A stretch of DNA of 63,992 bases, the filler included, from an uncultured bacterium (lineage in GTDB: Bacteria; CAZSTA01), in assembly GCA_964609495.1 (NCBI GenBank). It is 4 parts of 4 records of this genome, joined end to end, with 100 filler letters (N's around TTAATTAATTAA, not from the genome) between each part and the next. Parts side by side here need not be neighbours in the genome. Positions count along the whole stretch, not along the records: positions 36,265 to 53,750 come from CAZSTA010000063.1; 3 more parts are not named here. One strand, given 5' to 3'. The position numbers were made by a program, and so were the translations under genes. Of this stretch, positions 36,006 to 52,350 are shown one piece after another; positions within the stretch are counted from its first letter, which is position 1, and each line of letters opens with the position of its first letter. The notes below the pieces were generated by a model. That model had not been told where the DNA came from and ran no database searches. It worked only from the letters and a program-made list of their open reading frames with translations.

Positions 36006-36125
36006 CACCCTCCCCTAACCCCTCCCGTCGAGGGAGGGGAAAATAAAAGGAATCGCAGTTCACAGGAATCCCCTCTCCCCTCGTGGGAGAGGGATAGAGT
36101 GAGGGGGAAATTTATATCTTGAACC
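36006..36125. repeat. REP-like cruciform intergenic repeat (most complete copy)
   Basis: CACCCTCCCCTAACCCCTCCCGTCGAGGGAGGGG...CCCCTCTCCCCTCGTGGGAGAGGGATAGAGTGAGGGGG, then TTTATATCTTGAAC. Confidence 0.8.
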
Positions 36126-36264: not shown

Positions 36265-36474
36265 GTATCCGGTGAGATAGTCGAGGTGAACGAGGAGTTG
36301 GATACCGATGCCACCCTGATCAACCAAGATCCTTATGGAGAGGGTTGGATTCTAACTATCGAGCCATCCAATTTAGAGGAAGATCTGGAGAATCTACTCC
36401 ACGATCCCGAGGAGATAAAGGAATGGATAGCCGAAGAGATGAAGAAAGCCGAGGAGGAACAGGCGAAAGAGTAA
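36265..36474 (+). CDS. gcvH: Glycine cleavage H / lipoate-binding protein, 5'-truncated
   Basis: [12 protein letters not shown]....[12 protein letters not shown] is the GcvH C-terminal signature; the lipoyl Lys lies beyond the contig edge. Confidence 0.88.
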
Positions 36475-36772
36475 AAATCTACAAAGCCCCTTAGCCTGAA
36501 ATCTAAGGGAGGGGTCTGGCACAATAGAGGATCGAAGCCATAGAAAGCAGAGACAAAACAGCTTTGGGGTATCACCTGCCTATCCCTTTCAAGAGATTGA
36601 GAATAGCTCACAAGCAGTGCAAGTCAGTGATGAAGCTGGCTTGCATTGTTAATAAAAATTTAAGCAGTTTAGAAGAGGACTCGTTGAGGCTGTAGAAAGA
36701 TGATTTTTGAGAAGAGGTGGATTCTTAGTATTATGACGATTAAGGATCCTTAGTCTAATAGGAGGTGTTAAG

Positions 36773-39277
36773 ATGACTAAAACAAGATTTATATTATTAT
36801 TGGCTTTTTTGCTCTGCTTTATATTGACAATATCAGGACAAGCTCGAGGAAGTAAAAAAGAGGCTGATGAGCTAAAAGAGAAGGGACTGGAAGCTTACTA
36901 TAGGGGTGATTTTAGAGAGGCTTTAGGATATTATCAGCAAGCATTAGCGATAAGTAGTCTTTTATGGTTTTGTTCCGGTTTCTATTATACTCTTACCAAT
37001 ATAGGATTGGTATATCATAATTTAGGGGAATATGAGAAGGCTTTAGGATATTATCAGCAAGCCTTAGCGATAGCTCGAGAGATAGGTAATAAGGGAGGGG
37101 AGGGAACGTCTTTAGACAATATAGGAGTGGTATATGAGAATTTAGGGGAATATGAGAAGGCTTTAGGATATTATCAGCAAGCCTTAGCGATAAGGAGAGA
37201 GATAGAGGATAGGAGTGGAGAGGATAATACTCTTAACCATATAGGAGTGGTATATAGTAATTTAGGGGAATATGAGAAGGCTTTAGGATATCATCAGCAA
37301 GCCTTAGCGATAGCTCGAGAGATAGGTAATAGAAGAGGAGAGGGAATGGATCTTAACAGTATAGGAGTGGTATATAAGAATTTAGGGGAATACGAGAAGG
37401 CTTTGCAGTATTATCAGCAATCGCTGGAGATAGCTCAAGAGATAGGGGTTAGGAGAGGAGAGGGTAATACTTTTACTAGTATAGGAGTGGTATATAGGAA
37501 TTTAGGGGAATACGAGAAGGCTTTGCAGTATTATCAGCAAGCCTTAGAAGTCCTAGCAAAAGTTGAGATCGGTGCTCCCGAACCCCTCTGGCGAGCTCAA
37601 TATGGTAAAGGCACTTCCCTGGAAGGGTTAGGCCGGGAAAAGGAAGCCAGGGAAAGTTATATCCAAGCTATAGAGACTATCGAGACTATGCGGGGAAAGT
37701 TGAAAGTAGAGGAACATAAAACTATCTTCCTGGAAGATAAGCTCTTCGTCTATGAAGCTCTCATCAACTTACTCCTAAAGATGAAACAAGAGGAAGAAGA
37801 TAAAGATCATGGTATCGAAGCTTTCCACTATGTAGAGAGGAAGAGAGCTAGAGCGCTTCTTGATCTTCTAACGGAAGCTAAAGCTGATATCAGGGAGGGG
37901 ATAGCAGATGAACTGCGGGAGAGAGAGAAGGAATTGCTAGCTAGAGTATCTTGGATACAGACGAGAGCCAGGACTGAGGAGATATCTGAGGAGGAGAGGA
38001 ACAAGCTAAGTCAGGAGTTAAGGGAGATAGATGAGAAATTCGAGGAGTTGCAAGATGAGATAAGAGCTAGCAATCCTAGATATGCTGAGTTGGAGTATCC
38101 CGAACCTTATACCCTCTCTCAGGTGCAAGGGATGTTAGATGAGGACACTATCCTCCTCGAATATCATCTGGGAAGAGAAAAATCTGCTGTCTGGGTGATA
38201 ACTAAAGATGAGAGCGAAGTCTATAGTGATCTACCAGCTAGTAGGGAGTTGACAGAGCAAGTGATGAGATATCGCAGACTTCTTTTCCTGGAGAAGATGA
38301 AAGAGGATGAGAAGCAAGAGTGCTTCCACTTAGGCTCTCTTCTCTATCAGAAGCTCATCCTTCCCCTTAAAGATAAGTTAGCTCCCGATAAGAGGTTGCT
38401 TATCATTCCTGATGGCATTCTTTACTACCTGCCTTTCGAGACCCTCCTTGCTTATGAAGGGGATATAGAGGAAGCAGAAGTTCCCGAGAGATCGGAGGAT
38501 TTCCCTTACTTGCTAAAGGATTATTCGATCTTCTATTCCTCTTCTGCTTCGGTGCTAGGGACGATTAGAGAGGAAGAGATCGGGAGAGCTGAGGAAAGGG
38601 TGGGGAAGACTCAAGGGCAATTTCTTGGCTTCGGAGATCCTGTCTATCCTGAGGTAAAGAAGGGAGAGAGAGGAGTCTGGGAGGAGGTATATCTAAGGAG
38701 TGGGGGTGAACTGGGACGCTTAATCTATTCGGGAAAGGAAGTAATGGATGTAGAAGAGATATACAAATCTCAAGCTAGGGCATACCTGAGAGGAGAAGCG
38801 ACCGAGGAGAGAGTTAAGAGTGAGGAGTTAGATAACTATCGAATAGTGCATTTTGCCACACATGGTTTTGTGGATGAAGAGAAGCCAGAGTTATCCTGTG
38901 TGGTCTTAGCTATAGATGAAGATCCCGCTGAGGATGGCTTCTTACAGCTCAGAGAGGTCTTCAATCTCAAATTAGATGCGGATTTAGTGACTTTATCAGC
39001 TTGTCAAAGCGGATTAGGGAAGATGGTAAGGGGAGAGGGATTAGTAGGCTTGACGAGGGGATTTATGTATGCGGGAACATCATCTTTGTTAGTGAGTCTA
39101 TGGAGTGTGTATGATAAGTCAACCGCGGAGTTGATGAGGAAGTTCTACACCTATTATAGAGAAGGGATGACAAAGATAGAGGCACTGCGATCCGCAAAGC
39201 TAGATATGGTTAGAGAGGGTATATACTCAAGTCCAGCAAAGTGGGCCCCCTTTGTGCTTATGGGCGAATGGAAATAA
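36773..39277 (+). CDS. Exported TPR-repeat and CHAT (caspase-like) domain protein
   Basis: Signal peptide; 40-aa TPR units; IIPDGILYYLPFE, VHFATHG (His), LSACQSG (Cys), SLWSV.D, WAPFVLMG. Confidence 0.92.
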   Translation: MTKTRFILLLAFLLCFILTISGQARGSKKEADELKEKGLEAYYRGDFREALGYYQQALAISSLLWFCSGFYYTLTNIGLVYHNLGEYEKALGYYQQALAIAREIGNKGGEGTSLDNIGVVYENLGEYEKALGYYQQALAIRREIEDRSGEDNTLNHIGVVYSNLGEYEKALGYHQQALAIAREIGNRRGEGMDLNSIGVVYKNLGEYEKALQYYQQSLEIAQEIGVRRGEGNTFTSIGVVYRNLGEYEKALQYYQQALEVLAKVEIGAPEPLWRAQYGKGTSLEGLGREKEARESYIQAIETIETMRGKLKVEEHKTIFLEDKLFVYEALINLLLKMKQEEEDKDHGIEAFHYVERKRARALLDLLTEAKADIREGIADELREREKELLARVSWIQTRARTEEISEEERNKLSQELREIDEKFEELQDEIRASNPRYAELEYPEPYTLSQVQGMLDEDTILLEYHLGREKSAVWVITKDESEVYSDLPASRELTEQVMRYRRLLFLEKMKEDEKQECFHLGSLLYQKLILPLKDKLAPDKRLLIIPDGILYYLPFETLLAYEGDIEEAEVPERSEDFPYLLKDYSIFYSSSASVLGTIREEEIGRAEERVGKTQGQFLGFGDPVYPEVKKGERGVWEEVYLRSGGELGRLIYSGKEVMDVEEIYKSQARAYLRGEATEERVKSEELDNYRIVHFATHGFVDEEKPELSCVVLAIDEDPAEDGFLQLREVFNLKLDADLVTLSACQSGLGKMVRGEGLVGLTRGFMYAGTSSLLVSLWSVYDKSTAELMRKFYTYYREGMTKIEALRSAKLDMVREGIYSSPAKWAPFVLMGEWK
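36919..37546 (+). repeat. 120-bp tandem repeats encoding TPRs
   Basis: GGCTTTAGGATATTATCAGCAA-like anchors at 36919, 37039, 37159, 37279, 37399 and 37519. Confidence 0.85.
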
Positions 39278-39289
39278 GGAGTGATTTTT

Positions 39290-40657
39290 ATGGATATCGA
39301 GAAACTTAAAGCGATAGTGGGAGAGGATAATATCCTGACCTCTATCGAGGAGCGGATCTGTTATGCTTATGATGCCACGCGTCATAGACACCTGCCTGAT
39401 GCTGTGATTCGACCGGGAAGCACTGAAGAAGTAGCGCAGATCCTCACTTATGCGAATGAGAATGGGATCCCGATAACTCCTCGTGGCGCTGGTACAGGTT
39501 TAAGCGGCGGAACAGTGCCCTTGAAAGGAGGGATCTCACTTGTTATGATTCGGATGAATAAGATATTGGAGATCAACCCTCAGGATCTATATGCCGTTGT
39601 TGAACCAGGAGTGGTCACCTTTGCTCTCGCAACCGAGGTTGATAAACTTGGATTGCTCTATCCTCCTGATCCAGCTAGTCAGAATGTTTCAACGATAGGA
39701 GGGAATGTGGCGGAGAACGCTGGAGGATTGAGGGGATTAAAATATGGAGTAACGAGCGATTATATAATGGGGTTGGAGGTGGTATCTCCTCAAGGTGAGA
39801 TATTCCACACTGGAGCTAAGACGGTAAAGAGCGTTGCTGGTTATGATCTCACCAGCCTATTTGTAGGATCTGAGGGAACGTTGGGAGTGGTCACTAAGAT
39901 TACGGCAAAGCTCATCCCTAAGCCCGAGTATCATAGATCGATGTTGGCGATCTTCGATGATCTTACCGAAGCGGCACGAGCGGTCGCAGAGACGATCGAA
40001 GCGGGAGTCTTTCCCGCAACCATGGAGATAATGGATAAGATCACGATCAACGCGATCGAGGACTTCAAGCAGATCGGACTACCACGACAAGCGGAGGCGA
40101 TCCTTCTAATCGAGACGGATGGTATTAGAGAGGCGGCAGAGAAGGAGGCGGAGAAGATCGCTGCGATCTGCAAACGAAGAGGAGCGATGTCCGTCGAAGT
40201 GGCTAAGGACGATGAGGAGCGCGACCGACTCTGGGAGGGAAGAAGAACTGCCTTATCAGCGTTAGCTAGAGTTAAACCAACTACTATCCTAGAGGATGCT
40301 ACAGTCCCACGCAGTAAATTTCCCGATCTCGTGGATAAAGTTACGGAGATTGCCAAGAAATATAACTTGACTATCGGAACATTCGGTCACGCGGGTGATG
40401 GTAATCTGCACCCCACGATCCTGACGGATGCTAGGGATAAAGAGGAGAGCGAAAGGGTGGAGGACACCATCAGGGAGATATTCGACACCGCCCTATCCCT
40501 AGGAGGAACTTTGAGCGGAGAGCATGGCATTGGCTTCACCAAAGCCAAATTCCTCGAATTAGAGGTGGGTCGAGAGGGATTGGAGATGATGAGGAGGATC
40601 AAGAAGGCTATGGATCCAAATAACATCCTAAATCCGGGCAAGATCTTTTTAGAGTGA
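39290..40657 (+). CDS. glcD: FAD-linked 2-hydroxyacid dehydrogenase (GlcD / D-lactate dehydrogenase type)
   Basis: PRGAGTGLSGG, YPPDPAS, ENAGG...KYGVT, GSEGTLG, HAGDGNLHP, SGEHGIG, NPGKIF. Confidence 0.9.
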   Translation: MDIEKLKAIVGEDNILTSIEERICYAYDATRHRHLPDAVIRPGSTEEVAQILTYANENGIPITPRGAGTGLSGGTVPLKGGISLVMIRMNKILEINPQDLYAVVEPGVVTFALATEVDKLGLLYPPDPASQNVSTIGGNVAENAGGLRGLKYGVTSDYIMGLEVVSPQGEIFHTGAKTVKSVAGYDLTSLFVGSEGTLGVVTKITAKLIPKPEYHRSMLAIFDDLTEAARAVAETIEAGVFPATMEIMDKITINAIEDFKQIGLPRQAEAILLIETDGIREAAEKEAEKIAAICKRRGAMSVEVAKDDEERDRLWEGRRTALSALARVKPTTILEDATVPRSKFPDLVDKVTEIAKKYNLTIGTFGHAGDGNLHPTILTDARDKEESERVEDTIREIFDTALSLGGTLSGEHGIGFTKAKFLELEVGREGLEMMRRIKKAMDPNNILNPGKIFLE

Positions 40658-40693
40658 GCAGTTGACTTCGAATAATCAGTGAGGATAAAAACG

Positions 40694-41845
40694 ATGGAAA
40701 AACAATTATTTAAGGATTTAGAGACTGATATTATAAGATGTATGAAGTGCGGCAACTGCCGAGAGGTCTGTCCGGTTTTTATCGAGCTTCAGGGAGAATC
40801 CGCAGTTGCCAGAGGTAAGATAAGCCTAATTGAAGCGGTTGCGGAAGGATTGATAGAGCCTTCGCCGACCTTCATCGATCTGATATTCCAGTGCCTAAAT
40901 TGTGGGGGATGCGCTATCAACTGCCCTAGCGGGGTGGAGCCAGATAAGATGATCCTAGCTGCTAGAGCGGAATTGATCGATAGAGGGATGTCTCCTCCAG
41001 AGCTTCAGGAAAATTTAAGGGAGAACCTATTAAAGGAGAGCAATCCCTTTGGTCTCGCTAGAGGGGAGAGAGCCGATTGGCTCCCAGAGAAGTACCGAAA
41101 ACCAAGACCTAGCGAATATCTATATCATCTAGGATGTATGGTCTCCTACTCCTCCAACCGTATTGCCCGCTCCATCATCAGGATCCTCGATAATATAGAT
41201 TTTGACTTCACCATTATGGGTGATGATGAGACCTGCTGTGGAGATCCTATGTTCCGGGTGGGGGATGTCAAGGGGGGCAAGAGGATGATCGAGGAGAATA
41301 TAAGGAAGTTCGATAAGTATGGAGTAAAAACGATCTTCTCCTCATGCGCTGGATGTATAAATACCTTCCGCGCTCGATATCCAGATAGGTTTAGCTTTAT
41401 ACATATCACTCAACTCTTCGATCAATTGCTCCAAGAGGGTTCGCTCAAATTCAATAAGGGATTGAAGAAGAAGATCATCTACTTCGATGGATGCGATCTA
41501 GGGAGGCATTCGGGAATATTCGAGGAACCGCGTAATGTCCTCAAAGCTATCCCAGGGGTGGAATTGCTCGAATATGATGCTAATCGAGATAATGCCTTCT
41601 GTTGTGGTGGACCCTTTATGGCTGGTTATCCCGATCTCGCTAAGCGCATCGCGGCAAGGAGAATAAGAGAGGCTAAGGAGAAGGGAGCGGAGATGATCGC
41701 TACCAGTTGCCCCACTTGCATGGTCAACTTGAAGGAGGGGGCGAAGGTCGCAGGAATAGAGATGGAGATTATGGACATCCCGATGCTACTTCCCAAACTA
41801 TTAATGAAAGACAGTAAGAAGAGAAGAAAGGGGAATGAGAAATGA
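40694..41845 (+). CDS. HdrD/GlcF-like Fe-S protein (two 4Fe-4S motifs and two CCG domains)
   Basis: CMKCGNCREVCP, CLNCGGCAINCP; GC...TCCG...CAGC; GCDLGR...CCGG...CPTC. Confidence 0.88.
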   Translation: MEKQLFKDLETDIIRCMKCGNCREVCPVFIELQGESAVARGKISLIEAVAEGLIEPSPTFIDLIFQCLNCGGCAINCPSGVEPDKMILAARAELIDRGMSPPELQENLRENLLKESNPFGLARGERADWLPEKYRKPRPSEYLYHLGCMVSYSSNRIARSIIRILDNIDFDFTIMGDDETCCGDPMFRVGDVKGGKRMIEENIRKFDKYGVKTIFSSCAGCINTFRARYPDRFSFIHITQLFDQLLQEGSLKFNKGLKKKIIYFDGCDLGRHSGIFEEPRNVLKAIPGVELLEYDANRDNAFCCGGPFMAGYPDLAKRIAARRIREAKEKGAEMIATSCPTCMVNLKEGAKVAGIEMEIMDIPMLLPKLLMKDSKKRRKGNEK

Positions 41846-42894
41846 AGTTACTCAATCCAGCGGACGATCTGCCCGGCCAAGATTCTATGCTGATATTTCA
41901 TGCTATGGCTTATCTTGGTAGAGAGGCATTAATACTAGTTTCCCCCGCTTCCCCGATAGCGAGTATCGGTTACTTCCAAGATACCAACAAGGTGTTGGAT
42001 CTAGACTACTGTCGGGCTCATAACATTCCCGTTATGCGCCGAGAGATTGGAGGAGGAACTACTTATCTCGACTCTGACCAGATCTTCTATCAGGTAGTTT
42101 TGAAGAAGGATAATCCCCTGGTCCCAAGGAGGATAGCCGATATCTATAGTAAGTTCTCCCATCCTTCAATTGAAACCTATAAAGCATTTGGGATCGAGGC
42201 TTCTTTAAGACCGATCAATGATATCGTAACTGCTGGGGGGAAGAAGATCGCTGGAGAGGGTGGAGCGGATATCGGTGATTATATAGCCTTTGTGGGAGGT
42301 ATCTTGCTCGATTTCAATTACCAGGCTATGAGCAAGATACTGAAGGTCCCTAGCGAGAAGTTCAGGGATAAGGTATATAAGAGTATGGAAGAGAACTTGA
42401 CCACGATGAAGAGGGAGTTAGGATATAAGCCCTCTAAAGATGAGGTTAAGAAGGTCCTTATCTCTAAATTCGAGGAGATTCTAGGTCCACTCGAACCAAT
42501 GGAGATCGACGATGAGTTATCCGCTAAGATGAGAGAGTTGGAGAGACGATTTACCTCCGAGGAGTTTCTCTTCCGTAAAGGTAAAGCAACACCCGATCAG
42601 GTGAGGATAGCCGAGGGAGTAAATATCCAGCAGAGGAATTACAAAGCTCAGGGAGGGCTGATCACAACCGTAGTTGAGAGCAAAAACGAAACGATCAATG
42701 ATATCTCACTCTCCGGAGATTTAACCTTCTACCCTAAGGAGAAGCTAGCCGATTTAGAGGAAGCTCTCTTGGGGATCAAGCTAAATCGGGATGATATCAT
42801 AAGGAGAGTTGAGAGTTTCTATGAGGAAGAGCAAGCTCAGTCTCCAGGAGTGTCGGCAGAGGATATAGCTGAGGCTATAGTAGGGGAGCAGTAG
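41842..42894 (+). CDS. lplA: Lipoate-protein ligase (catalytic domain plus C-terminal accessory domain)
   Basis: SIGYFQ, RREIGGGTTYLD, NDI...KKIAG, C-terminal YKAQGGLI...SGDLTFYP; ATGA-coupled to the upstream gene. Confidence 0.88.
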   Translation: MKLLNPADDLPGQDSMLIFHAMAYLGREALILVSPASPIASIGYFQDTNKVLDLDYCRAHNIPVMRREIGGGTTYLDSDQIFYQVVLKKDNPLVPRRIADIYSKFSHPSIETYKAFGIEASLRPINDIVTAGGKKIAGEGGADIGDYIAFVGGILLDFNYQAMSKILKVPSEKFRDKVYKSMEENLTTMKRELGYKPSKDEVKKVLISKFEEILGPLEPMEIDDELSAKMRELERRFTSEEFLFRKGKATPDQVRIAEGVNIQQRNYKAQGGLITTVVESKNETINDISLSGDLTFYPKEKLADLEEALLGIKLNRDDIIRRVESFYEEEQAQSPGVSAEDIAEAIVGEQ

Positions 42895-43011
42895 ATCACT
42901 GCTCTCTATTTTTTGAAATCCCGAATATGAAACAAATTATAGATGATTTGAGGAACGATATAGTATTGCAATATGCTCAAGTTAACTATGTTAAGAATTC
43001 CACAAAATTGA

Positions 43012-43040
43012 TTGACAAAATTGCTGTAGTTGGTTATAAT
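43012..43040 (+). promoter_or_regulatory. Consensus sigma70 promoter of hdrC
   Basis: TTGACA-N17-TATAAT. Confidence 0.8.
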
Positions 43041-43100
43041 GGATAGGGTTGAGAAATTAGAGCTGAAATGTTTAAATAAAGTTTCTAGGAGGCGATGAGG

Positions 43101-43613
43101 TTGGCGGAAGAAACCAAAGATGATTATACTCTGGTGAGCGAGTTAGACCCGAACTTCAAATATGAGATCGCCGAAGAGCCAGGAGGAGAGAACATAAAGT
43201 TCTGTTTCCAATGTGGCACTTGCACCGCAAGCTGTCCCGTGAGGGAGATCGATGAGAAATTCAATCCTCGCAAGATAATCAGAATGGCTCTCTTAGGGAT
43301 GAGAGATAGAGTCCTATCAAGCGAATTCGTCTGGCTGTGTTCGACGTGCTATAGCTGTCAGGAGCGCTGTCCTCAGAATATAAAGATTACGGATCTAATG
43401 AGTGTTTTAAAGAACATGGCGGTTAAAGCTGGATATACTTTACCCGCTTTCAAATTTCAGGTAGATCTTTTAGAGGAGCATGGGCGCCTTTACGAGATAG
43501 ATGAATTTGATAATAAGAAGAGGAATAGAGCTGGACTTCCCCCGATAAATCTGAAGTGCGATGAGGTAGGGGAGATAATCAGGATGACCGGTTTAAGCGA
43601 TGATGTAAAATAA
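43101..43613 (+). CDS. hdrC: Heterodisulfide reductase subunit C
   Basis: CFQCGTCTASCP, PRKIIR...G, WLCSTCYSCQERCP; TTG 43101 is best spaced from AGGAGG (ORF track starts at 43095). Confidence 0.93.
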   Translation: MAEETKDDYTLVSELDPNFKYEIAEEPGGENIKFCFQCGTCTASCPVREIDEKFNPRKIIRMALLGMRDRVLSSEFVWLCSTCYSCQERCPQNIKITDLMSVLKNMAVKAGYTLPAFKFQVDLLEEHGRLYEIDEFDNKKRNRAGLPPINLKCDEVGEIIRMTGLSDDVK

Positions 43614-43629
43614 TCACACAATCCTAGAG

Positions 43630-43669
43630 GTCAACAACCCCTACTACAAGAGTAGGGGTTTCTGCCGAC
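43630..43669. repeat. Short hairpin resembling an IS200/IS605-type end
   Basis: GTCAAC-AACCCCTACT-ACAAG-AGTAGGGGTT-TCTGCCGAC. Confidence 0.4.
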
Positions 43670-43692
43670 TAGTTTCTTATGAAGGGGAGAGA

Positions 43693-44568
43693 ATGATGAA
43701 ATACGCTTTATTCTTAGGCTGCACAGTTCCCGCTAGAGCGAGAAATTATGAGATGTCCTCGAGGAAGGTAGCTGAGGCTCTAGGCGTGGAGTTAGTCGAT
43801 ATTCCGGAGTTTGGTTGTTGTGGATTTCCTTTAAGAGGATTGAATCAAGAGACCACGATGCTTCTTGCCGCTAGGAATCTAGCCTTAGCTGAAGAGCAAG
43901 GATTAAATATAACTACTCTCTGTAGCGGTTGCGCCTCTATCCTCTCGGAATATAATAAAGAGCTAAAGGAAGATGAAGAGCTAAGGGAGGAGGTAAATAA
44001 GAAGCTGGCAAAGATGAATAAGCGTTACGATGGAGGAATTGAGGTCAAGCATTTTGCTCGAGTTCTATATGAAGATGTGGGGTTAGAGAAGATAAGGGCA
44101 GAGGTAAAGCGAGATCTTTCCGCCTGGAAGCTGGCTTCCTATTATGGTTGTCATTATCTAAAGCCCTCCGAGGCTCACGATGGATTCGATGATCCTGAGA
44201 ATCCGAAATCCTTAGAAAGATTAGTGGAGGCGGCTGGGGCTATCCCCGTTTATTACGCGGAGCGAAGACATTGCTGTGGTGGGGCTATATTCGCTATAAA
44301 TGGCGATCTCGCCTACTCTATGTCTAAGCAGACTTTGGACAGCGTGAAGGAATCTGGCGCTGATGCTATGAACTTGATTTGCCAATTCTGTAGCAATATG
44401 TATGATGATAACCAAAGGCAGATCGAGGCTAAGTTCGAGGTAAGCTATAAAATACCAGTCCTCTTTTATCCTCAGGTATTGGGATTAGCTTTGGGGATGG
44501 ATCCAAAAGAGCTGGGATTAAATATGAATAAGGTGAAGACCAAGGATCTTCTAGCGAAGTTGGATTAA
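43693..44568 (+). CDS. hdrB: Heterodisulfide reductase subunit B
   Basis: FLGC, GCCG, AARNLALAE, CSGC, YYGCHYLKP, DDPENP, CCGG, CQFC, PQVLGLALG. Confidence 0.95.
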   Translation: MMKYALFLGCTVPARARNYEMSSRKVAEALGVELVDIPEFGCCGFPLRGLNQETTMLLAARNLALAEEQGLNITTLCSGCASILSEYNKELKEDEELREEVNKKLAKMNKRYDGGIEVKHFARVLYEDVGLEKIRAEVKRDLSAWKLASYYGCHYLKPSEAHDGFDDPENPKSLERLVEAAGAIPVYYAERRHCCGGAIFAINGDLAYSMSKQTLDSVKESGADAMNLICQFCSNMYDDNQRQIEAKFEVSYKIPVLFYPQVLGLALGMDPKELGLNMNKVKTKDLLAKLD

Positions 44569-44644
44569 GGGCGAGCCAGCTTATCCAAAAGCGATAAAGA
44601 GCATAGAAAGAGGTTAATCATTTCGTGGAAAGGAGGGATTGAGG

Positions 44645-45100
44645 ATGCTAAGAGAATTTAAAGAGTTTGCTATGCGGGGCAACGTAGTTGACATGGCCGT
44701 CGGAATCATTATTGGTGCGGCCTTCGGCACGATCGTCAGCTCACTGGTCTCCGATATCATCATGCCACCTATTGGCTTGCTATTGGGCAACGTTGATTTC
44801 TCCAATCTTTTCATAGTGCTAAAAGCAGGCACGCCCACAGGACCTTACACCTCCCTTGCCGACGCTCAGGCAGCCAGTGCGGTTACCCTCAACTACGGTG
44901 CATTCGTGAATACGATCATTAGCTTCCTAATAGTCGCCTTTGCGGTATTTCTTCTCATCCGTGGTATCAACAGGCTTAAGCGACAAGAGGAAGCTCCGCC
45001 AGCCGAACCCACAACCAAGGAGTGCCCATATTGCCTGACTACTATTCCACTCAAAGCCACACGTTGCCCAAACTGCACTTCTAAGTTAGAGGCGGCGTAA
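44645..45100 (+). CDS. mscL: Large-conductance mechanosensitive channel with C-terminal zinc ribbon
   Basis: [30 protein letters not shown]-terminal KECPYC...ATRCPNCTS. Confidence 0.95.
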
Positions 45101-45140
45101 AGCTATCGGTGCTCACGGAGCCAGAGAATACGTCCACATT

Positions 45141-45265
45141 GGCTAACACGCCGTTGGTGGCTTCGCCAAAACCCGCCGCTTGGGGTTCGACAAAGGCCAT
45201 TTACCATTGAGGCGTCGCAGTGGGCGAGAGGTGACTCACCAGCGAAAGCACAGCAGGCTTTGGCA
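45141..45265 (+). other. Degenerate integron attC-like imperfect hairpin
   Basis: GGCTAAC-ACGCCGTTGGTGGCTTCGC ... GCGAAAGCACAGCAGGC-TTTGGCA; the right box lacks the G of GTT. Confidence 0.4.
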
Positions 45266-45298
45266 GGCATAACTTCATTACTTTAGAAAGGATTTATA

Positions 45299-46123
45299 AT
45301 GAAGGCTAATGCAAGCTCTAGCTATGGCTATGAAAATTGCCCCGAAGAACTTAAGCTCATATTGGATAAAATGGTAGAAGGTTTCAGAAATATTCTGCAA
45401 GATGATTTAGTAGGGATTTACCTACACGGCTCATTAGCTATGGGATGCTTTAACCCTAAATCTAGTGATATCGATTTTCTCGTCATTGTAAAAGATAAGT
45501 TGGAGGTCGAAACCAAGAGAAAAATTATTGACGTTATTCTACAACTTTCACGATCAAAATATATGCCTGAGAAAGATTTTGAATTTAGCGTTATCTTGCA
45601 GAAATATTTGGAGCCCTTCATCTATCCAACTCCCTTTGAACTCCATTACTCAAAAATGTGGAAAAGAGATTATGAACTGGACAAGGTGGATTATACAAAG
45701 CAAGATGATGATCCTGATTTAGCGGCCCATATTACCATTACCTTGAATAGAGGTATTTCCTTATATGGCAAGCTAATAGAGGAAGTATTTCATCCGGTTC
45801 CTGAGGAGTATTATATTAGTTCACTGATCTATGATGTAGAGGATATCCCAGACAATATAACCAAAGATCCTGTTTATGGTATCCTTAATATGTGTAGAGT
45901 CCTTTACTATTTGAGAGAAAAAGTCATCTTTTCTAAAGATGAAGCCGCCGTCTGGGCTCTTGAGAATCTACCAGAGAAATTCAAGGATCCAGTTAAGCAA
46001 GCTATTTTACTATATAGAGGAGTAATTGACGAGGTAGAATGGGATAAAAAAGAACTTGTGGAATTTTCTGATTACATGATGGAGAAGATAAATAGAGTCC
46101 GAGCCGCTCTCTCTAAATCATAA
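45299..46123 (+). CDS. Aminoglycoside adenylyltransferase-like nucleotidyltransferase (AadA/ANT, DUF4111)
   Basis: GIYLHGSLAMG.F.P..SDIDFLV, DPDLAAH, YGILNMCR.LYY, SKDEAA.WAL. Confidence 0.85.
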   Translation: MKANASSSYGYENCPEELKLILDKMVEGFRNILQDDLVGIYLHGSLAMGCFNPKSSDIDFLVIVKDKLEVETKRKIIDVILQLSRSKYMPEKDFEFSVILQKYLEPFIYPTPFELHYSKMWKRDYELDKVDYTKQDDDPDLAAHITITLNRGISLYGKLIEEVFHPVPEEYYISSLIYDVEDIPDNITKDPVYGILNMCRVLYYLREKVIFSKDEAAVWALENLPEKFKDPVKQAILLYRGVIDEVEWDKKELVEFSDYMMEKINRVRAALSKS

Positions 46124-46154
46124 CAAAATCGAAAAAAGGAGAGGAAAAAGATAA

Positions 46155-49100
46155 ATGGGCGATAATAATAACAATAAGAAAATAGGATCTGTTTTAGTTG
46201 TTGGTGGTGGTATCGCTGGCATCCAATCCTCCTTGGATTTGGCAGATTCGGGGTTTAAGGTCTATCTAGTGGATAAATCTCCAGCTATCGGGGGAACTAT
46301 GGCTCAATTGGATAAAACCTTCCCTACTAACGACTGCTCGATGTGTATCCTGGCTCCTAAGCTGGTGGAGGCGGGAAGACATCCCAATATTGAACTCATA
46401 ACTATGGCGGAGCTCGAGAGCATAGAGGGAGAAGCAGGGAACTTCAAAGTGAATGTTAAAAAGCACCCTCGCTATATAGATGAAGATGCCTGCACTGGCT
46501 GTGGTGATTGTGCTTTAGCTTGCCCTGTTGAATTGCCCTCGGAGTTCAATGAGGGTTTGGGTATGCGTAACGCGGCTTATCGCCCCTATCCTCAAGCGAT
46601 CCCCAATCTCTTCGCCATTGATAAGCGGGGTATCCCTCCCTGCCGAGCCGCTTGCCCAATAGGGGTCAACGCTCAAGGCTATGTGGCTTTGGTTAGTAAG
46701 GGGGAATTTCAGAAAGCCCTTGATCTAGTTCGCGAGACCAATCCCCTGCCTGCTATCTGTGGGAGAGTATGTCATCATCCGTGTGAAGAGAAGTGTAGCC
46801 GGGGCGATGTTGATGAGCCGATAGCAATCGATGCGATAAAGCGATTCGTATGGGATTGGGAGAAAGCTAACAATAGGAACGCGAGAGAGGAGAGCCTTCT
46901 GAAACAGCGAGCTGAGATTCAGAAGAAGGGGGAAAAGGTAGCGATCATCGGATCTGGACCAGCAGGATTGACCGCTGCCCACGATCTGATCAAAGCTGGC
47001 TATGATGTTACCATATTCGAGGCTCTGCCGGTAGCTGGTGGTATGCTGGCGGTCGGCATCCCCGATTATCGATTGCCTCGCGAGGTCCTACAAGATGAAA
47101 TAGATGATATATTAAAGCTCGGAGTCGAGCTCAAACTTAATACCGCTTTAGGCGAAGATATAACGATAGAAGGGCTTTGGGAACGAGGATATAAGGCGAT
47201 CCTCCTCGCGGTAGGAGCCCATATAAGCCGTAAGCTGAGGATCCCTGGCGAGGATATGGAGGGAGTAGTTCATGGGGTTGACTTCTTGAAAAAGGTTAAC
47301 CTTGGCGATGAATCTGCCAAATCCCTCGTGAAAGGCAAGCGAGTTGCTATCATCGGTGGTGGTAATGTGGCTATCGATGCCTCTAGGACTGCGATCCGCC
47401 TCGAGGCGGAGGAAGTTACTATCCTCTATCGAAGATCGAGGAAGGAGATGCCAGCCAACGAGTGGGAGGTCGAGGAGGCTGAACATGAAGGGGTAAAGAT
47501 CCAATTCCTCACTGCTCCTACGAGAGTGATCGGGGAGGACGGAAAGGTAACGGGAATAGAATGCTCGCGGATGAAGTTAGGAGAGCCTGATGAGAGCGGA
47601 AGGCGTCGTCCTATCCCCATCGAGGGAGCGGAGTTCGTCGTAGATTGCGAGGTGATCATCCCAGCTATCAGCCAATCAGCCGATCTCTCCTTCAGCGATG
47701 ATCTGGCTATAACTCGATGGGGAACTGCTGAGGTGGATCCCGAAACGCTTGCCACTAATATCAAGGGAATATTTGCCGCGGGAGATGCGGTGAATGGTCC
47801 GGGAACGGTCGTAGAGTCTATGGCTGATGGTCGAAGGGCCGCTCAAGCGATGATGAACTTCCTCTCCAATGATGGTCAGATCGAGATCAAAGTTAAAGCA
47901 GAGCCAACCAAGGAAATGCCACTTCTTGAGGAGTGCAGTTGGCTCACCGAAGAGGAAATAGAGAAGATCGAGCCCAAACCCCGTCAAGTGATGCCTTCTC
48001 TAGCGGCTGAGGAAAGGAGAGGTTCCTTCTCCGAGGTGGAGTTGGGTTTCACCGAAGAACAAGCGATAGCCGAGGCAAAGCGTTGTCTGGAATGTGGTGT
48101 ATGCTCTGAGTGTATGGAGTGTGTGAGGGCTTGTGAGGCGGAGGCAGTTCGCCATGAGATGATAGAACAAATAATCGATCTTACAGTTGGAGCATTGATT
48201 TTGGCGCCTGGCTTCGATGAGTTCGACCCGCGAATCAAAACTGAATATGGTTATGATCGATATAAGAATGTATTAACTAGCATCGAATTCGAGAGGATGT
48301 TGAGCGCTTCAGGACCCTTCGGAGGACATCTGATGCGTCCCTCCGATGGTCAAACCCCTAGAAAGATCGCCTTTATCCAATGCGTTGGCTCCAGAGATGC
48401 GGAATGTGGAAATGAATATTGTTCCTCCGTATGCTGTATGTATGCTACTAAAGAGGCGGTTATCGCTAAGGAACACCAGCGAGATCTAGAGGCGACCATC
48501 TTCTTTATGGATATGAGAGCGTATGGTAAGGACTTCGATAAATACTACGAACGAGCTAAGGATGAATATGGAGTTCGATATGTGAGATCGAGAGTTGCCG
48601 CCACAGATGAGGATCCAAAAACCGGCAACTTACTGATAAATACCGAACTGGAGGATGGGACGCTCGTCAAAGAGGAGTTCGATCTGGTGATCCTCTCGGT
48701 AGGGCTAGAGCCATCCCACAGTATCTGGGAATTGGGGAAAAAATTAGGTATAAAGTTGAATCGTTATGGATTCTGCGAAACTACTACCTTTATGCCGCTT
48801 GCTACCTCTAGGGAGGGGATCTTCGTCTGTGGAGCGATGCAAGGACCGAAGGATGTTCCCGAAACTGTTATGCAGGCCAGCGGTGCAGCCGCTCAGGTCA
48901 GCGCATTATTAGCGGCTGAGAGGGGGACGTTGGTTACGAAGAAGGAATATCCTCCTGAGAGGGATGTCAGTGGTGAGCCTCCAAGAATCGGGGTATTCGT
49001 CTGTCATTGTGGAATCAACATCGGAGGAGTGGTGAACGTTCCCGAGGTTGTGGAATATGCTCGCCACCTTCCCGGGGTGGTATATGCGGAGGAGAACCTC

Positions 49101-50711
49101 TATACCTGCTCTCAGGATACCCAGGAAAAGATGCAGAAGGTAATAAAGGAGCATAATCTCAACCGGGTGGTCGTGGCTTCCTGCACGCCGAGGACTCACG
49201 AGCCGCTATTTAGAGAGACGCTTCGTCAGAGCGGTTTGAATAAATACCTCTTCGAGATGGCGAATATCCGCGATCAATGTTCCTGGGTACATATGTTCGA
49301 GCCAGATAAAGCTACGGAGAAAGCTAAGGATCTGGTGCGAATGTCAGTAGCTAAAGCTGGGCGCTTGGAGCCTCTAGTGGAGAGAACTCTGCCGCTCACC
49401 AAGAAGGGATTGGTCATCGGTGGGGGGATATCAGGTATAGCCGCCGCCTTAGCCTTCGCTGATCAGGGATATGAGTCCTACTTGATCGAGAAGGAGGACG
49501 AGCTGGGAGGCAATCTGAGGAAGATATATTATACCGTGGAGGGAGATGATACCCAGGCTTATCTCGCCTCGATGATCGAGAAGGTCGAGAATAACGAGCT
49601 GATCCATATCCATACTGGCACCGAAGTCCAAGATGTAGCTGGATTTGTGGGGAACTTTACAACTACTATCAACAGGAACGGTGAATGCCAAACAATAGAT
49701 CACGGGGTCATAATAGTTGCTACTGGTGCTGAGGAGTATAAACCCAAGGAGTATATGTATGGGCAGGATGAGAGGATCATAACTCAACGGGAATTCGAGC
49801 AGAAGCTCGTCGATCCCTCCGACAAATTGGTCGATGAATTGAAATCGGTCGTTATGATCCAATGCGTCGGCTCTCGTAACGATGAACATCCTTACTGTAG
49901 TCGTATCTGTTGCACTGAGGCAGTCAAGAACGCCCTGAAGCTCAAGGAGAGAAATCCCCAAGCCGAGGTCTATGTTCTCTATCGAGATATGAGGACCTAT
50001 GGCTTCAAGGAGGAGTTCTACAAGGAAGCGAGGGGAGAGGGAGTCCTCTTCATACGCTTCGAGGAGGGAGATGAGCCTCAGGTTGTTAAAGATAATGGCA
50101 AGATACGGGTGATAACGAGCGATCCTGTTCTGAAGGAGAAATTAGCCTTCGATCCTGATCTACTTGTCCTCTCCGCGGCGACTGTAGCCCCAGAGAGCAA
50201 CAAAGAGCTAGCTCAGATGTTGAAGGTGTCCGTCAACGAAGATGGCTTCTTCCTGGAGGCTCATATGAAGCTTCGCCCAGTCGATTTCGCTACAGATGGT
50301 ATCTTTCTCGCGGGATTAGCCCATAGTCCCAAGCTAATAGAGGAGAGCATAACCCAAGCCCAAGCAGCTGTATCGAGAGCTTGCACAGTCTTATCTCAGG
50401 ATTTCATTCGAACGGAGGGTATAGTTTCCTCCGTAAATGAGATGCTATGCTCTGGTTGTGGAGACTGCGAAGCACTATGTCCCTTCGAGGCGATCGAGAT
50501 GGAGGTCAAGAAAGTTCCCTTCAAGGGAGAGAAGCTGGTTGCAGTCGTCAATGAAGCTCTCTGCAAAGGATGTGGAGCCTGTGCAGCTACCTGTCGCTCA
50601 GGAGCGATAAGCCTGAAGGGCTTCACCGATGCTCAACTTTGGTCTTCAATCCAATCCCTGCTCGACGAGAAGGAAGAAGAGAAGAAGCTCGTTACTGTAG
50701 GTAGGCTATGA
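46155..50711 (+). CDS. hdrA: Large HdrA-like flavoprotein (HdrL type): HdrA, GltD-like NAD(P)H module, second HdrA
   Basis: GGGIAG, LDKTFPTNDCSMC; PPCRAACP, CGRVCHHPCE, GSGPAG, GGGNVA, YRR; CVGSR/CSSVCC; CHCG, SCTP, ANIRDQCSWVH; CSRICC; C-terminal ferredoxin. Confidence 0.93.
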   Translation: MGDNNNNKKIGSVLVVGGGIAGIQSSLDLADSGFKVYLVDKSPAIGGTMAQLDKTFPTNDCSMCILAPKLVEAGRHPNIELITMAELESIEGEAGNFKVNVKKHPRYIDEDACTGCGDCALACPVELPSEFNEGLGMRNAAYRPYPQAIPNLFAIDKRGIPPCRAACPIGVNAQGYVALVSKGEFQKALDLVRETNPLPAICGRVCHHPCEEKCSRGDVDEPIAIDAIKRFVWDWEKANNRNAREESLLKQRAEIQKKGEKVAIIGSGPAGLTAAHDLIKAGYDVTIFEALPVAGGMLAVGIPDYRLPREVLQDEIDDILKLGVELKLNTALGEDITIEGLWERGYKAILLAVGAHISRKLRIPGEDMEGVVHGVDFLKKVNLGDESAKSLVKGKRVAIIGGGNVAIDASRTAIRLEAEEVTILYRRSRKEMPANEWEVEEAEHEGVKIQFLTAPTRVIGEDGKVTGIECSRMKLGEPDESGRRRPIPIEGAEFVVDCEVIIPAISQSADLSFSDDLAITRWGTAEVDPETLATNIKGIFAAGDAVNGPGTVVESMADGRRAAQAMMNFLSNDGQIEIKVKAEPTKEMPLLEECSWLTEEEIEKIEPKPRQVMPSLAAEERRGSFSEVELGFTEEQAIAEAKRCLECGVCSECMECVRACEAEAVRHEMIEQIIDLTVGALILAPGFDEFDPRIKTEYGYDRYKNVLTSIEFERMLSASGPFGGHLMRPSDGQTPRKIAFIQCVGSRDAECGNEYCSSVCCMYATKEAVIAKEHQRDLEATIFFMDMRAYGKDFDKYYERAKDEYGVRYVRSRVAATDEDPKTGNLLINTELEDGTLVKEEFDLVILSVGLEPSHSIWELGKKLGIKLNRYGFCETTTFMPLATSREGIFVCGAMQGPKDVPETVMQASGAAAQVSALLAAERGTLVTKKEYPPERDVSGEPPRIGVFVCHCGINIGGVVNVPEVVEYARHLPGVVYAEENLYTCSQDTQEKMQKVIKEHNLNRVVVASCTPRTHEPLFRETLRQSGLNKYLFEMANIRDQCSWVHMFEPDKATEKAKDLVRMSVAKAGRLEPLVERTLPLTKKGLVIGGGISGIAAALAFADQGYESYLIEKEDELGGNLRKIYYTVEGDDTQAYLASMIEKVENNELIHIHTGTEVQDVAGFVGNFTTTINRNGECQTIDHGVIIVATGAEEYKPKEYMYGQDERIITQREFEQKLVDPSDKLVDELKSVVMIQCVGSRNDEHPYCSRICCTEAVKNALKLKERNPQAEVYVLYRDMRTYGFKEEFYKEARGEGVLFIRFEEGDEPQVVKDNGKIRVITSDPVLKEKLAFDPDLLVLSAATVAPESNKELAQMLKVSVNEDGFFLEAHMKLRPVDFATDGIFLAGLAHSPKLIEESITQAQAAVSRACTVLSQDFIRTEGIVSSVNEMLCSGCGDCEALCPFEAIEMEVKKVPFKGEKLVAVVNEALCKGCGACAATCRSGAISLKGFTDAQLWSSIQSLLDEKEEEKKLVTVGRL

Positions 50712-50752
50712 AGAATAAAAGCGATCATATTAAGAAATCCTCTCTCCACAAG

Positions 50753-50791
50753 TCCCCTCTCCCCTCGTGGGAGAGGGATAGGGTGGGGGAG
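50753..50791. repeat. REP-like repeat (half unit) between hdrA and mvhD
   Basis: TCCCCTCTCCCCTCGTGGGAGAGGGATAGGGTGGGGGAG. Confidence 0.75.
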
Positions 50792-50858
50792 GTATTGAAA
50801 TCACCAGCTAATATTTGAACTTACTTGATTACTAGGCTAAGGGGGTAAATTCGCAATT

Positions 50859-51326
50859 ATGTCCGATAACGGAAGCGAGAAGCAAGGCACCGCTGAGGAG
50901 GATTGGGAGCCGACGATATTGGCTTTTTTATGTAACTGGTGTAGCTATGCTGGCGCTGATCTTGCGGGAACTAGCAGAATCCAATATCCTCCTAACATAA
51001 GGGTAATCCGAGTTCCCTGCTCAGCGCGAGTTAATCCAATGCTCATCATCAAAAGTTTGCAATATGGTGTGGATGGGGTATTAGTATCGGGATGTCATCC
51101 GGGAGATTGTCATTATATTAGCGGTAATTATCTGGCTAGAAGAAAATTTACTTTGCTTAAGAGTCTCCTGGAATATTTTGGAATCGAATCGGATAGGGTT
51201 CAATTCTCATGGGTATCCGCGGCTGAAGGGGGGAAATTCTCGGAGGTAGTTAAAAAGGTGGCGGATAGCGTCCGAGCTCTTGGCCCAGCGAAAAAGATGG
51301 TTAAAACTATGGGTGAGGTTGATTAA
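50859..51326 (+). CDS. mvhD: MvhD/FlxD-type [2Fe-2S] subunit
   Basis: FLCNWCSYAGADLAG, RVPCSARV, GCHPGDCHY.SGN, WVSAAEG. Confidence 0.95.
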   Translation: MSDNGSEKQGTAEEDWEPTILAFLCNWCSYAGADLAGTSRIQYPPNIRVIRVPCSARVNPMLIIKSLQYGVDGVLVSGCHPGDCHYISGNYLARRKFTLLKSLLEYFGIESDRVQFSWVSAAEGGKFSEVVKKVADSVRALGPAKKMVKTMGEVD

Positions 51327-51374
51327 CTCACTTAAAGTGCGAAGTCCGATGGCTTCGCTTGGAGTCTGTCAGTA

Positions 51375-51743
51375 ATGATAGCAGAAATAGTATGGGTCTC
51401 GATTCTAGCTCTTGGTGGATGGACGATCTATCTCTATATACGAGACCAGAAGGAAAGACACTGTTGTGTCGATCATTGTGTGCGAGATGGGATTCCTTCA
51501 AAACCTTGTTCGATCTGTGGAAAGCGTTCGGCTTATTGCCGTGAACATAGAGACTTTATGAGTAAGGATATGGCCTACTGCGAATTTTGTGGAGCTATCT
51601 TTTGCACAACTCACATCGATAGTAGCTTTCTAAATCCAGTAGAAGGACGTTATATAGGCTACTGGGAGATAGATGAGGATACTGCCGATGTCGCTTGTCC
51701 CCGTTGTGGGAGAGGCCCTGTGAGGGAATATAAAGGGGATTAA
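51375..51743 (+). CDS. Hypothetical membrane-anchored Cys/His-rich (zinc-finger-like) protein
   Basis: N-terminal TM helix; CSICG...YCREH, CEFCG..FCTTH, CPRCG. Confidence 0.6.
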   Translation: MIAEIVWVSILALGGWTIYLYIRDQKERHCCVDHCVRDGIPSKPCSICGKRSAYCREHRDFMSKDMAYCEFCGAIFCTTHIDSSFLNPVEGRYIGYWEIDEDTADVACPRCGRGPVREYKGD

Positions 51744-51785
51744 TTTCATCCCTTTTCCTGATAATCTAATTCAATTAAGAGGCTA

Positions 51786-52328: not shown

Positions 52329-52350
52329 GATGCATTATGTCTGATGTGGG

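Follow-up and report, generated by a model that had tools for sequence, protein, structure and literature searches.

A lipoate-protein ligase and a GcvH-like carrier encoded with heterodisulfide reductase-type genes: a candidate lipoyl shuttle in an uncultured salt-marsh bacterium and its relatives

Introduction

Genes for heterodisulfide reductase (Hdr) proteins of the HdrABC, HdrL and HdrD-like kinds are widespread in sulfate reducers, syntrophs, fermenters, and in archaea, Asgard archaea among them, that produce neither coenzyme M nor B. In the current study we analysed a cluster of such genes on one contig of an uncultured salt-marsh bacterium (positions 36265-53750 of the window, the term used here for the whole stretch of 63,992 bases that was analysed), in which the gene for a lipoate-protein ligase, lplA, lies among genes for a GcvH-like lipoyl carrier, a GlcD-type 2-hydroxyacid dehydrogenase with a CCG-domain partner, and an HdrCB-HdrL-MvhD complex. 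The disulfide that serves Hdr outside the methanogens is called unknown or unidentified in the available parts of Kohtz et al. (2022, PMC9723716) and of the preprint 10.1101/2023.11.21.568159.

The closest described system is sHdr-LbpA-sLpl(AB) of the sulfur oxidisers, as presented in the accessible portions of Cao et al. (2018, PMC6067878) and Tanabe et al. (2023, PMC10332631). As in that system, the Hdr-like genes are accompanied by genes for a GcvH-like lipoyl protein and an LplA-like ligase of its own, lplA standing here between the CCG gene and hdrC; the ligase is far from E. coli LplA, and the Lys-Trp pair found at the lipoylation site of carriers in related clusters is seen in LbpAs of two sHdr-type loci as well. 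The present cluster nevertheless falls outside this system on its carriers, which lack the two LbpA cysteines, on its hdr gene set, as a single hdrCB with a bifurcating-type HdrL and MvhD stands in place of hdrC1-hdrB1-hdrA-hyp-hdrC2-hdrB2, and on sulfurtransferases, of which Pfam scans detected none on the contig. The same scans revealed no radical-SAM LipS1/S2 in the window cluster, and, unlike in the sulfur oxidisers, the partners are enzymes of carbon and hydrogen metabolism and the hosts are anaerobes.

With the methanogen HdrABC-MvhAGD complex, for which structures have been solved (5odc, 8rvu), the cluster shares an HdrB with both CCG motifs, HdrC, the HdrA fold and MvhD. It differs in that HdrA is doubled and contains an NfnB-like NAD(P)H module, in that the substrate would be a lipoyl group rather than CoM-S-S-CoB, in the lack of methanogenesis genes on the contig, and in that HdrB, HdrC (Table 1) and the HdrA2 match of HdrL (1067.5 bits against 1100) all score under the curated equivalog cut-offs. 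In the Ehe cluster of Culexarchaeia, GcvH occurs with HdrB, HdrA2B2C2 and SdhA and was suggested to coordinate the disulfide moiety for HdrB (Kohtz et al. 2022, PMC9723716); unlike the present locus that cluster is centred on a membrane NiFe hydrogenase, and the accessible part of the report discusses no ligase, GlcD, survey or carrier classification. Strittmatter et al. (2009, PMC2702500, in part) describe the HdrL of Desulfobacterium autotrophicum HRM2 as a protein in which heterodisulfide reductase and glutamate synthase parts are fused and which contains an NADH-binding site; its gene is followed by mvhD. A large fusion of the HdrA/glutamate-synthase type is followed by mvhD here also, the difference being that hdrCB, lplA and glcD precede it, whereas the available sections of PMC2702500 put forward a connection with sulfite reduction and mention neither a lipoyl carrier nor a ligase. 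The Hdr half of the cluster is of the known HdrL-MvhD kind.

Thiol:fumarate reductase TfrAB uses CoM-SH and CoB-SH in methanogens. Like this enzyme and the lactate dehydrogenases built from GlcD and an HdrD-like subunit, the cluster pairs a substrate flavoprotein with a thiol/disulfide CCG subunit, yet all scores from the window and its relatives lie under the family cut-offs and the proposed thiol partner is a dihydrolipoyl-protein. The confurcating lactate dehydrogenase Ldh-EtfAB uses lactate and reduced ferredoxin to reduce 2 NAD+ by means of Etf flavoproteins and no thiol carrier; the overall reaction proposed below is the same, while the proteins are unrelated.

An earlier note on this DNA, in which a lipoyl-protein shuttle between hydroxyacid oxidation and the Hdr complex was proposed, had left its novelty open. 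A literature search, from which subscription journals and supplements largely fell out, returned no description of GlcD/HdrL clusters of anaerobes in which genes for a lipoate ligase or a GcvH-like protein occur; the notion that GcvH might serve the disulfide chemistry of Hdr had been suggested in passing in the accessible text of PMC9723716.

Results

The ligase and its gene neighbourhoods

On the evidence of sequence, LplA has the catalytic and C-terminal accessory domains of lipoate-protein ligases together with their catalytic lysine: it aligns over its full length with the solved ligase 1vqz_A and keeps the GKK motif, with which, in solved ligases, Lys135 aligns, a residue conserved without exception in 20 of 20 family members. 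The scores stay under every NCBIfam cut-off (TIGR00545, 132.3 against 280). The family to which it belongs is a tight one of ~55-60% identity and comprises, at E<=1e-20, 1537 proteins out of 6300 candidates, with 53-62% identity for the best 120 relatives and 93% for one more, and it extends over bacteria and archaea, the sources named being WOR-3, Thermodesulfobacteriota, Oleimicrobiaceae and a Thermoplasmatales archaeon. In a quick maximum-likelihood tree built from 90 ligases, E. coli LplA falls far outside this family, and the latter splits into a clade rich in Hdr neighbours and another rich in neighbours of the CCG-plus-membrane-protein kind. The label 'Hdr neighbour' requires 10 changes on this tree as compared to a mean of 19.9 after shuffling (0 of 500 shuffles as low), and the window ligase forms a deep, unresolved branch.

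Related loci were collected by a scan of genome collections, which yielded five, and by a metagenome scan with a 20-sequence alignment, in which 535 of 598 candidate stretches were confirmed and the best 80 taken. Synteny was counted from 83 ligase loci (the 80 metagenome loci and L001-L003), whose open reading frames (ORFs) were labelled with profiles built from the window proteins and their matches; counts refer to the 39 loci in which 4 kb or more of flank is visible, and genes up to 5 kb from the ligase are taken as partners. Of these 39 loci, 24 have a CCG-domain gene (HdrB or HdrD-like) near the ligase, in every case on its strand, while HdrB/C was found in 16, HdrD-like in 15, HdrA/L in 14, and GlcD and GcvH-like genes in nine loci each; any Hdr, CCG, GlcD or GcvH-like partner was seen in 28. 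Because three host genomes contain 45, 11 and 12 CCG domains in 3.8, 2.0 and 1.8 Mb, respectively, a CCG domain would be expected by chance in a 7.2-kb flank in at most ~9% of cases. CCG genes are thus enriched near the ligase about seven-fold or more, and their co-location with it exceeds chance.

The core order of the window, MvhD-GlcD-CCG-LplA-HdrC-HdrB-HdrL(-MvhD), is repeated in L030, L048 and L079, and in L061 as far as HdrC, where that locus is cut. Other arrangements are GlcD-LplA-HdrCB-HdrA (L002, L049, L050), HdrCB-LplA-HdrL (L006, L017, L034, L035, L059), GcvH-LplA-HdrCBA (L054, L064, L081), LplA-HdrCB-HdrL-GcvH (L060, L069) and CCG-membrane protein-LplA with or without GcvH (L001, L015, L016, L018, L043), while L126 displays the complete row GlcD-CCG-GcvH-CCG-membrane protein-LplA. 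In many loci the ligase gene is part of an hdr operon and either overlaps its neighbours or stands only a few bases away from them, as HdrB-LplA-HdrL in five and as LplA-HdrC in at least ten. The survey of gene neighbourhoods for which the earlier note had called therefore shows that the ligase/CCG/Hdr synteny recurs. In a 401-genome sample of the phylum of genome G001, 18 had a match at E<=1e-70 and strong family members occurred in eight genomes at nine loci, of which four, L126 with its complete row among them, show partners within the up to ~8 kb inspected on each side.

The remaining neighbours (90 proteins from 29 CCG-bearing loci, matching 85 families, the 25 most frequent of which were listed) include fumarase, malic enzyme, the large and small subunits of NiFe hydrogenase and HycI, four times each, an SdhA/TfrA-like flavoprotein, a class V aminotransferase and OsmC, three times each, and GntR/FCD regulators, twice; among those 25 most frequent families there is no sulfurtransferase (TusA, DsrE, rhodanese). 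MvhA/G and HycI are additions at some of the relatives' loci. Three loci (L054, L064, L081) carry in one row malic enzyme, fumarase alpha/beta, the GcvH-like carrier, the ligase, HdrCBA, a 233-aa (amino acid) CCG protein, a TfrA-like flavoprotein and HdrL. From its gene content this row looks like a fumarate-linked version of the same scheme and, by analogy with methanogen Tfr, is a candidate dihydrolipoyl:fumarate reductase; the best match of the L064 flavoprotein is TfrA, at 339.9 bits (cut-off 718).

Separately, L048 (21 kb), and L030 also, contain a large redox island with two different Hdr sets on one strand, which in L048 runs HdrL-HdrC-HdrB, NiFe hydrogenase small/large, HycI, MvhD, GlcD, CCG, LplA, HdrC, HdrB, HdrL, MvhD, two CCG proteins, HdrA-like. 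A gene on the minus strand converges on the hdrL end in L017 (15817-16248, 144 aa), L034 (15808-16314, 169 aa) and L059 (8662-9093, 144 aa); the three form one BLAST cluster and are probably the three OsmC matches.

The GcvH-like carrier

Fifteen GcvH-like proteins encoded beside the clusters were compared to six canonical GcvH proteins, namely that of E. coli and five encoded directly before gcvP in G001, G002, G004 and G005, and to five LbpA-type proteins from two sHdr-type loci (L004, L005). The lipoyl lysine is kept in all proteins of the three sets (15/15, 6/6 and 5/5). The residue that follows it is Trp in 14 and Phe in one of the Hdr-associated carriers, Trp in three and Met in two of the LbpAs, and Ala or Thr in all six canonical proteins. 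Two conserved cysteines, near the N- and C-terminus, are typical of LbpA and are described as lacking in GcvH in the consulted part of Cao et al. (2018, PMC6067878); they are present in the three Lys-Trp LbpAs of L004/L005 and in none of the 15 Hdr-associated carriers. These residues support the view that the Hdr-associated carrier represents a non-canonical class of GcvH.

The window retains a C-terminal stub of its carrier, which scores 76.5 bits on the Hdr-associated profile, 50.3 on the sHdr-LbpA profile and 43.5 on that of canonical GcvH, a margin that is indicative only, as the Hdr-associated, canonical and LbpA profiles were built from 15, 6 and 5 sequences, respectively. The stub has no Cys, contains the C-terminal W-x-x-E helix of the Hdr-associated class, and its 11 best identities are all to that class, all of which is indicative of a better fit there than with canonical GcvH. 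No gcvP follows it, while canonical gcvH is followed by gcvP in five of five cases in G001, G002, G004 and G005. Given these profile scores and the missing gcvP, it is unlikely that the stub belongs to an ordinary gcvT-H-P operon, which the earlier note had named as one of the findings that would overturn its proposal; the upstream side is lost at the contig edge.

The carrier of L126 (11333-11752, minus strand) passes the cut-off of NF002270, an NCBI model for a GcvH subfamily (131.5 bits against 117), and does not reach that of TIGR00527. Annotation pipelines are therefore likely to name such a carrier 'glycine cleavage system protein GcvH', which can create false glycine-cleavage calls in metabolic reconstructions.

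Lipoylation genes in the genomes of relatives

The presence of gcvPT, lipA, dsrC and similar genes was checked in five genomes reached via related loci, these being relatives and not the window organism itself. One contig of G001 contains gcvH, gcvP, a LipB/M-like gene and lipA, and in G002, G221 and G251 a LipB/M-like gene lies beside lipA. Since these LipB/M-like-lipA pairs are separate from it, the ligase studied here is an extra one in the relatives. The extra GcvH-like genes of G001 adjoin HdrC-HdrB and a CCG gene. In G003, an archaeal metagenome-assembled genome (MAG) of 1.8 Mb, the ligase and a GcvH-like gene are present, and no match to GcvT, GcvP or E2 was obtained in this possibly incomplete MAG. 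Neither G001, G002 nor G003, the three anaerobe genomes searched for them, matched E2, and DsrC was matched in G001 only.

In two of four genomes the lipA match (TIGR00510) contains one in-frame TGA (G221:C89:36956-37825 and G002:C220:174-1034). The top PF21948 score in G001 (C310), G221 (C17) and G251 (C54) belongs to a third protein, ~520 aa long, that contains a lipoate-ligase catalytic domain and may be a ligase fusion.

The GlcD-CCG dehydrogenase and the Hdr complex

The window GlcD is 37-48% identical to the GlcD proteins of related clusters (55% over one 69-aa fragment), and its predicted substrate class is of the D-lactate or glycolate type. The adjoining CCG protein combines two 4Fe-4S motifs with two CCG domains and is presumed to provide the thiol/disulfide site of the dehydrogenase; of the NCBIfam models TfrB fits it best, with 169.9 bits (cut-off 385), GlcF reaching only 88.8 (cut-off 333). 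A glycolate oxidase of the GlcDEF type was considered and rejected, there being no GlcE on the contig, a GlcD just under its cut-off and a CCG protein far under that of GlcF. At L047 (5383-8013) and L132 (3406-5964), beside GcvH-like-LplA, GlcD and the CCG protein are fused into polypeptides of 853-877 aa, which supports the two forming one enzyme.

All ten CCG cysteines of HdrB are invariant among 19 of 19 aligned sequences and the eight cysteines of HdrC among 17 of 17, the window's proteins included in both cases. HdrL matches the solved HdrA 5odc_A with 707 bits in four stretches, and its residues 161-572 match the NfnI large subunit 5jca_L with 352 bits, so that an NAD(P)H module of the NfnB/GltD-like kind (~residues 160-656) is inserted into an HdrA flavoprotein and is succeeded by a further half that resembles HdrA. 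The mvhD gene lies 148 bp downstream of hdrL, and its product shares 67% identity with the MvhD encoded after HdrL in L048. A predicted complex of HdrB, HdrC and the GcvH-like carrier of L069 scored 0.08 against a mark of 0.32, this being a run with alignment inputs and no controls.

The contig and its gene row

The window consists of four contigs joined by N44-TTAATTAATTAA-N44 spacers; the features of the contig under study are given in Table 1, and NCBIfam names of ten large ORFs on the other contigs yielded no marker for the taxonomy of the host. ORF calls with Pfam and NCBIfam searches bore out the genes, order and plus-strand orientation given in the earlier note, as well as the overlap of the lplA ATG with the TGA of the CCG gene, and domain scans likewise agreed with it in detecting no gcvP/gcvT, 2-oxoacid dehydrogenase E2, dsrC or methanogenesis genes on the contig. 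The row that it listed was incomplete, as the CHAT-TPR, mscL and nucleotidyltransferase genes had been omitted.

Table 1. Predicted features of the contig under study, in window coordinates
Feature	Position	Strand	Basis
GcvH-like lipoyl carrier, C-terminal stub, 69 aa	36265-36474	+	PF01597 E 2e-14, profile positions 67-120 only
CHAT-TPR protein, 834 aa, signal-peptide-like N-terminus	36773-39277	+	PF12770 CHAT 4e-66 and TPR families
GlcD-type FAD-dependent 2-hydroxyacid dehydrogenase	39281-40657	+	PF01565 and PF02913; TIGR00387 564.3 bits (cut-off 567.9)
HdrD/TfrB-like CCG protein, 388 aa	40679-41845	+	PF02754 in two stretches, 2.7e-36; Fer4_8
Two-domain lipoate-protein ligase LplA	41842-42894	+	PF21948 and PF10437
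Terminator-like hairpin, 10-bp stem, between lplA and hdrC	42883-42907	+	Pattern scan only
Sigma-70 consensus, 12/12 match, 55 bp ahead of hdrC	43012-43040	+	Pattern scan only
HdrC, two 4Fe-4S clusters	43095-43613	+	TIGR03290 122.6 bits (cut-off 160)
HdrB, both CCG motifs intact	43693-44568	+	TIGR03288 281.7 bits (cut-off 345)
mscL	44639-45100	+	PF01741 3.1e-45
AadA-like nucleotidyltransferase	45299-46123	+	PF13427 and PF01909
HdrL, 1518 aa	46155-50711	+	Pfam, NCBIfam and structure-chain matches
MvhD, 2Fe-2S electron-transfer subunit accompanying HdrA/HdrL	50859-51326	+	PF02662 7.9e-54

The CHAT-TPR gene is probably an intervening gene and not part of the system, and none of the related loci examined shows such a gene adjoining the cluster. 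The mscL and AadA-like nucleotidyltransferase genes are absent from all related clusters examined, where hdrL follows directly after hdrB (or lplA). Contigs assembled from four salt-marsh/marsh DNA sequencing runs were short (at most ~1.4 kb for the 32 longest of 568); among those 32 none started upstream of 36316, such that the sequence ahead of 36265 was not recovered from these runs, and none joined across the intervening genes.

Directly 3' of mvhD lies a gene (51375-51743) for a 122-aa Cys-rich protein with an N-terminal hydrophobic stretch and weak zinc-ribbon matches only. A G/C-rich palindromic element resembling repetitive extragenic palindromic (REP) sequences, with the core CCTCTCCCCTCGTGGGAGAGGG, occurs at 36072-36093, 50756-50777 and 53965-53986 on three different contigs of the window (three matches against none expected). 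In the four salt-marsh/marsh runs the read-contig depth at 50257-50839 was 44-238, where most other bins had ~1-10, and numerous loose ends were seen at 50755 and 50789; in view of this raised depth and these ends the element is multi-copy or common to many genomes.

Discussion

A functional link of the ligase and the GcvH-like carrier to CCG enzymes (HdrB, HdrD/TfrB-like) and to GlcD is well supported by gene context on many unrelated contigs. We propose that a dedicated lipoyl carrier shuttles dithiol and disulfide between the GlcD-CCG dehydrogenase and HdrCB-HdrL-MvhD, and put the probability of this at roughly one half, the case being comparative throughout and built from gene context and motifs. 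The two enzyme modules of the contig would thereby share one small protein-bound cofactor. The ligase would load lipoate (or octanoate) onto this carrier only, a dedication that we infer from the relatives, in which canonical GcvH adjoins gcvP and a separate lipB/M-like-lipA pair exists (the two forming one gene group only in G001). The lipoyl arm of the carrier would act as the dithiol/disulfide for the CCG sites of both the GlcD partner and HdrB, replacing CoM-S-S-CoB: GlcD-CCG would move electrons from a 2-hydroxyacid of the D-lactate or glycolate type to the lipoyl disulfide, HdrB would re-oxidise the dihydrolipoyl group, and the flavin of HdrL would join these electrons with those of reduced ferredoxin for the reduction of NAD(P)+ at the NfnB-like insert. 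MvhD would serve as adaptor for electron transfer in this flavin-based con- or bifurcation.

The overall reaction would be reversible, and a reverse course with a 2-oxoacid as electron sink is conceivable. Provided that the shuttle exists, the oxidative, hydroxyacid-consuming direction is somewhat favoured, since the membrane version at L126 (GlcD-CCG-GcvH-CCG-cytochrome b-LplA) makes sense only from hydroxyacid to quinone and since GntR/FCD regulators stand ahead of glcD in two relatives. Standard potentials are ~-290 mV for lipoamide, -190 mV for pyruvate/lactate, -90 mV for glyoxylate/glycolate, -320 mV for NAD and ~-450 mV for ferredoxin. On these values the reaction of dihydrolipoyl and reduced ferredoxin to 2 NAD(P)H would run downhill, while the transfer from lactate or glycolate to lipoate is uphill by ~100-200 mV and would call for a carrier pool kept strongly oxidised or for a tuned potential.

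This uphill step is one of several points that weigh against the shuttle. In the window the cluster is interrupted, with the CHAT-TPR gene splitting the gcvH stub from glcD, which lies 2.8 kb downstream of it, and with mscL and the nucleotidyltransferase gene splitting hdrB from hdrL; the stub itself begins three residues past the position of the lipoyl lysine, which the contig edge has cut off. A terminator-like hairpin followed by a consensus promoter separates lplA from hdrC, and although these are pattern matches and not functional evidence, they make glcD-CCG-lplA and hdrCB look like two adjacent transcription units, so that the halves of the cluster may be separate transcripts in the window organism. 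Among the relatives, 11 of the 39 well-flanked ligase loci and five of the nine strong loci in the 401-genome sample have no partner within the distances inspected, no GcvH-like gene was seen in the visible stretch of the four loci that share the core order (L030, L048, L061, L079), and the rows nearest to the window ligase in the tree (L007, L010, L012) include two loci devoid of partner genes. Finally, the position of the ligase family in the tree, beside one ligase-like gene from two sHdr-type lbpA/radical-SAM clusters (SH-aLRT 99), speaks in favour of the shuttle but is flagged as a possible long-branch join. Of the interpretation offered in the earlier note, what stands is the tie of ligase and carrier to CCG enzymes and GlcD and the non-canonical nature of the carrier; lipoate as the disulfide substrate, the direction of electron flow and confurcation to NAD(P)+ are candidate features of a reasonable mechanism, which has the interruptions, the partnerless ligases and the uphill step as its problems.

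The same interruptions, the terminator/promoter pair and the 11 partnerless loci could be taken to mean that the genes are independent neighbours, in which case GlcD-CCG would feed quinone or another acceptor, HdrCB-HdrL-MvhD would use a DsrC-like protein or a small thiol, and general lipoylation would be the task of the ligase and GcvH. Lactate dehydrogenases made up of GlcD and an HdrD-like subunit are indeed known from sulfate reducers, and G001 has a DsrC match. We regard this explanation as unlikely, since it leaves the ligase genes embedded in hdr operons with tiny gaps or overlaps and the enrichment of CCG genes around the ligase unaccounted for, since four relatives' genomes possess a separate lipB/M-like-lipA pair (in G001 on the gcvH-gcvP contig), and since DsrC was matched in just one of three anaerobe genomes. 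It is more improbable still that the carrier handles sulfur as in sHdr-LbpA, presenting sulfane sulfur to the Hdr-like complex in oxidation, disproportionation or reduction. The Lys-Trp signature common to the carrier and the LbpAs of the two sHdr-type loci, the grouping of the ligases and the occurrence of some hosts among the Thermodesulfobacteriota would agree with this, yet the carriers and the window stub are devoid of the LbpA cysteines, the window cluster has no double hdrC1B1/hdrC2B2 set, its HdrA, which has an NAD(P)H module and is joined by MvhD, is of the bifurcating type, and the most frequent neighbour families feature fumarase, malic enzyme, NiFe hydrogenase and SdhA/TfrA-like proteins in lieu of TusA, DsrE or rhodanese.

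Lipoyl-dependent peroxidases of the Ohr/OsmC type are known, and Hdr might therefore keep the carrier reduced for such enzymes, or for thiol-dependent repair, the reduced carrier then being the end user rather than an intermediate. OsmC-like proteins are recurrent neighbours and the converging genes just after hdrL are probably of this kind, but OsmC is found in three loci only and on the opposite strand, no OsmC gene is present on the window contig, and the GlcD, TfrA-like, fumarase and hydrogenase partners would be left unexplained; this we consider very improbable.

The lipoyl shuttle between GlcD-CCG and HdrCB-HdrL-MvhD, if it exists, has implications beyond the window organism. Protein-bound lipoate becomes a testable candidate for the disulfide of Hdr outside the methanogens, and a small, expressible carrier with its own ligase would turn the question of the Hdr disulfide into a bench assay. 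It is possible, and put forward here tentatively, that, across many bacterial and archaeal phyla, lipoate bound to a dedicated GcvH-like carrier with its own ligase serves Hdr and HdrD-type enzymes outside the methanogens as their general 'heterodisulfide'. A modular dithiol/disulfide currency would then connect GlcD-type and TfrA-like dehydrogenases, Mvh hydrogenase and cytochrome b modules to the bifurcating HdrA/HdrL, and lipoate, whose non-canonical role has until now been demonstrated in sulfur oxidisers alone, would have such a role in the carbon and hydrogen metabolism of anaerobes as well.

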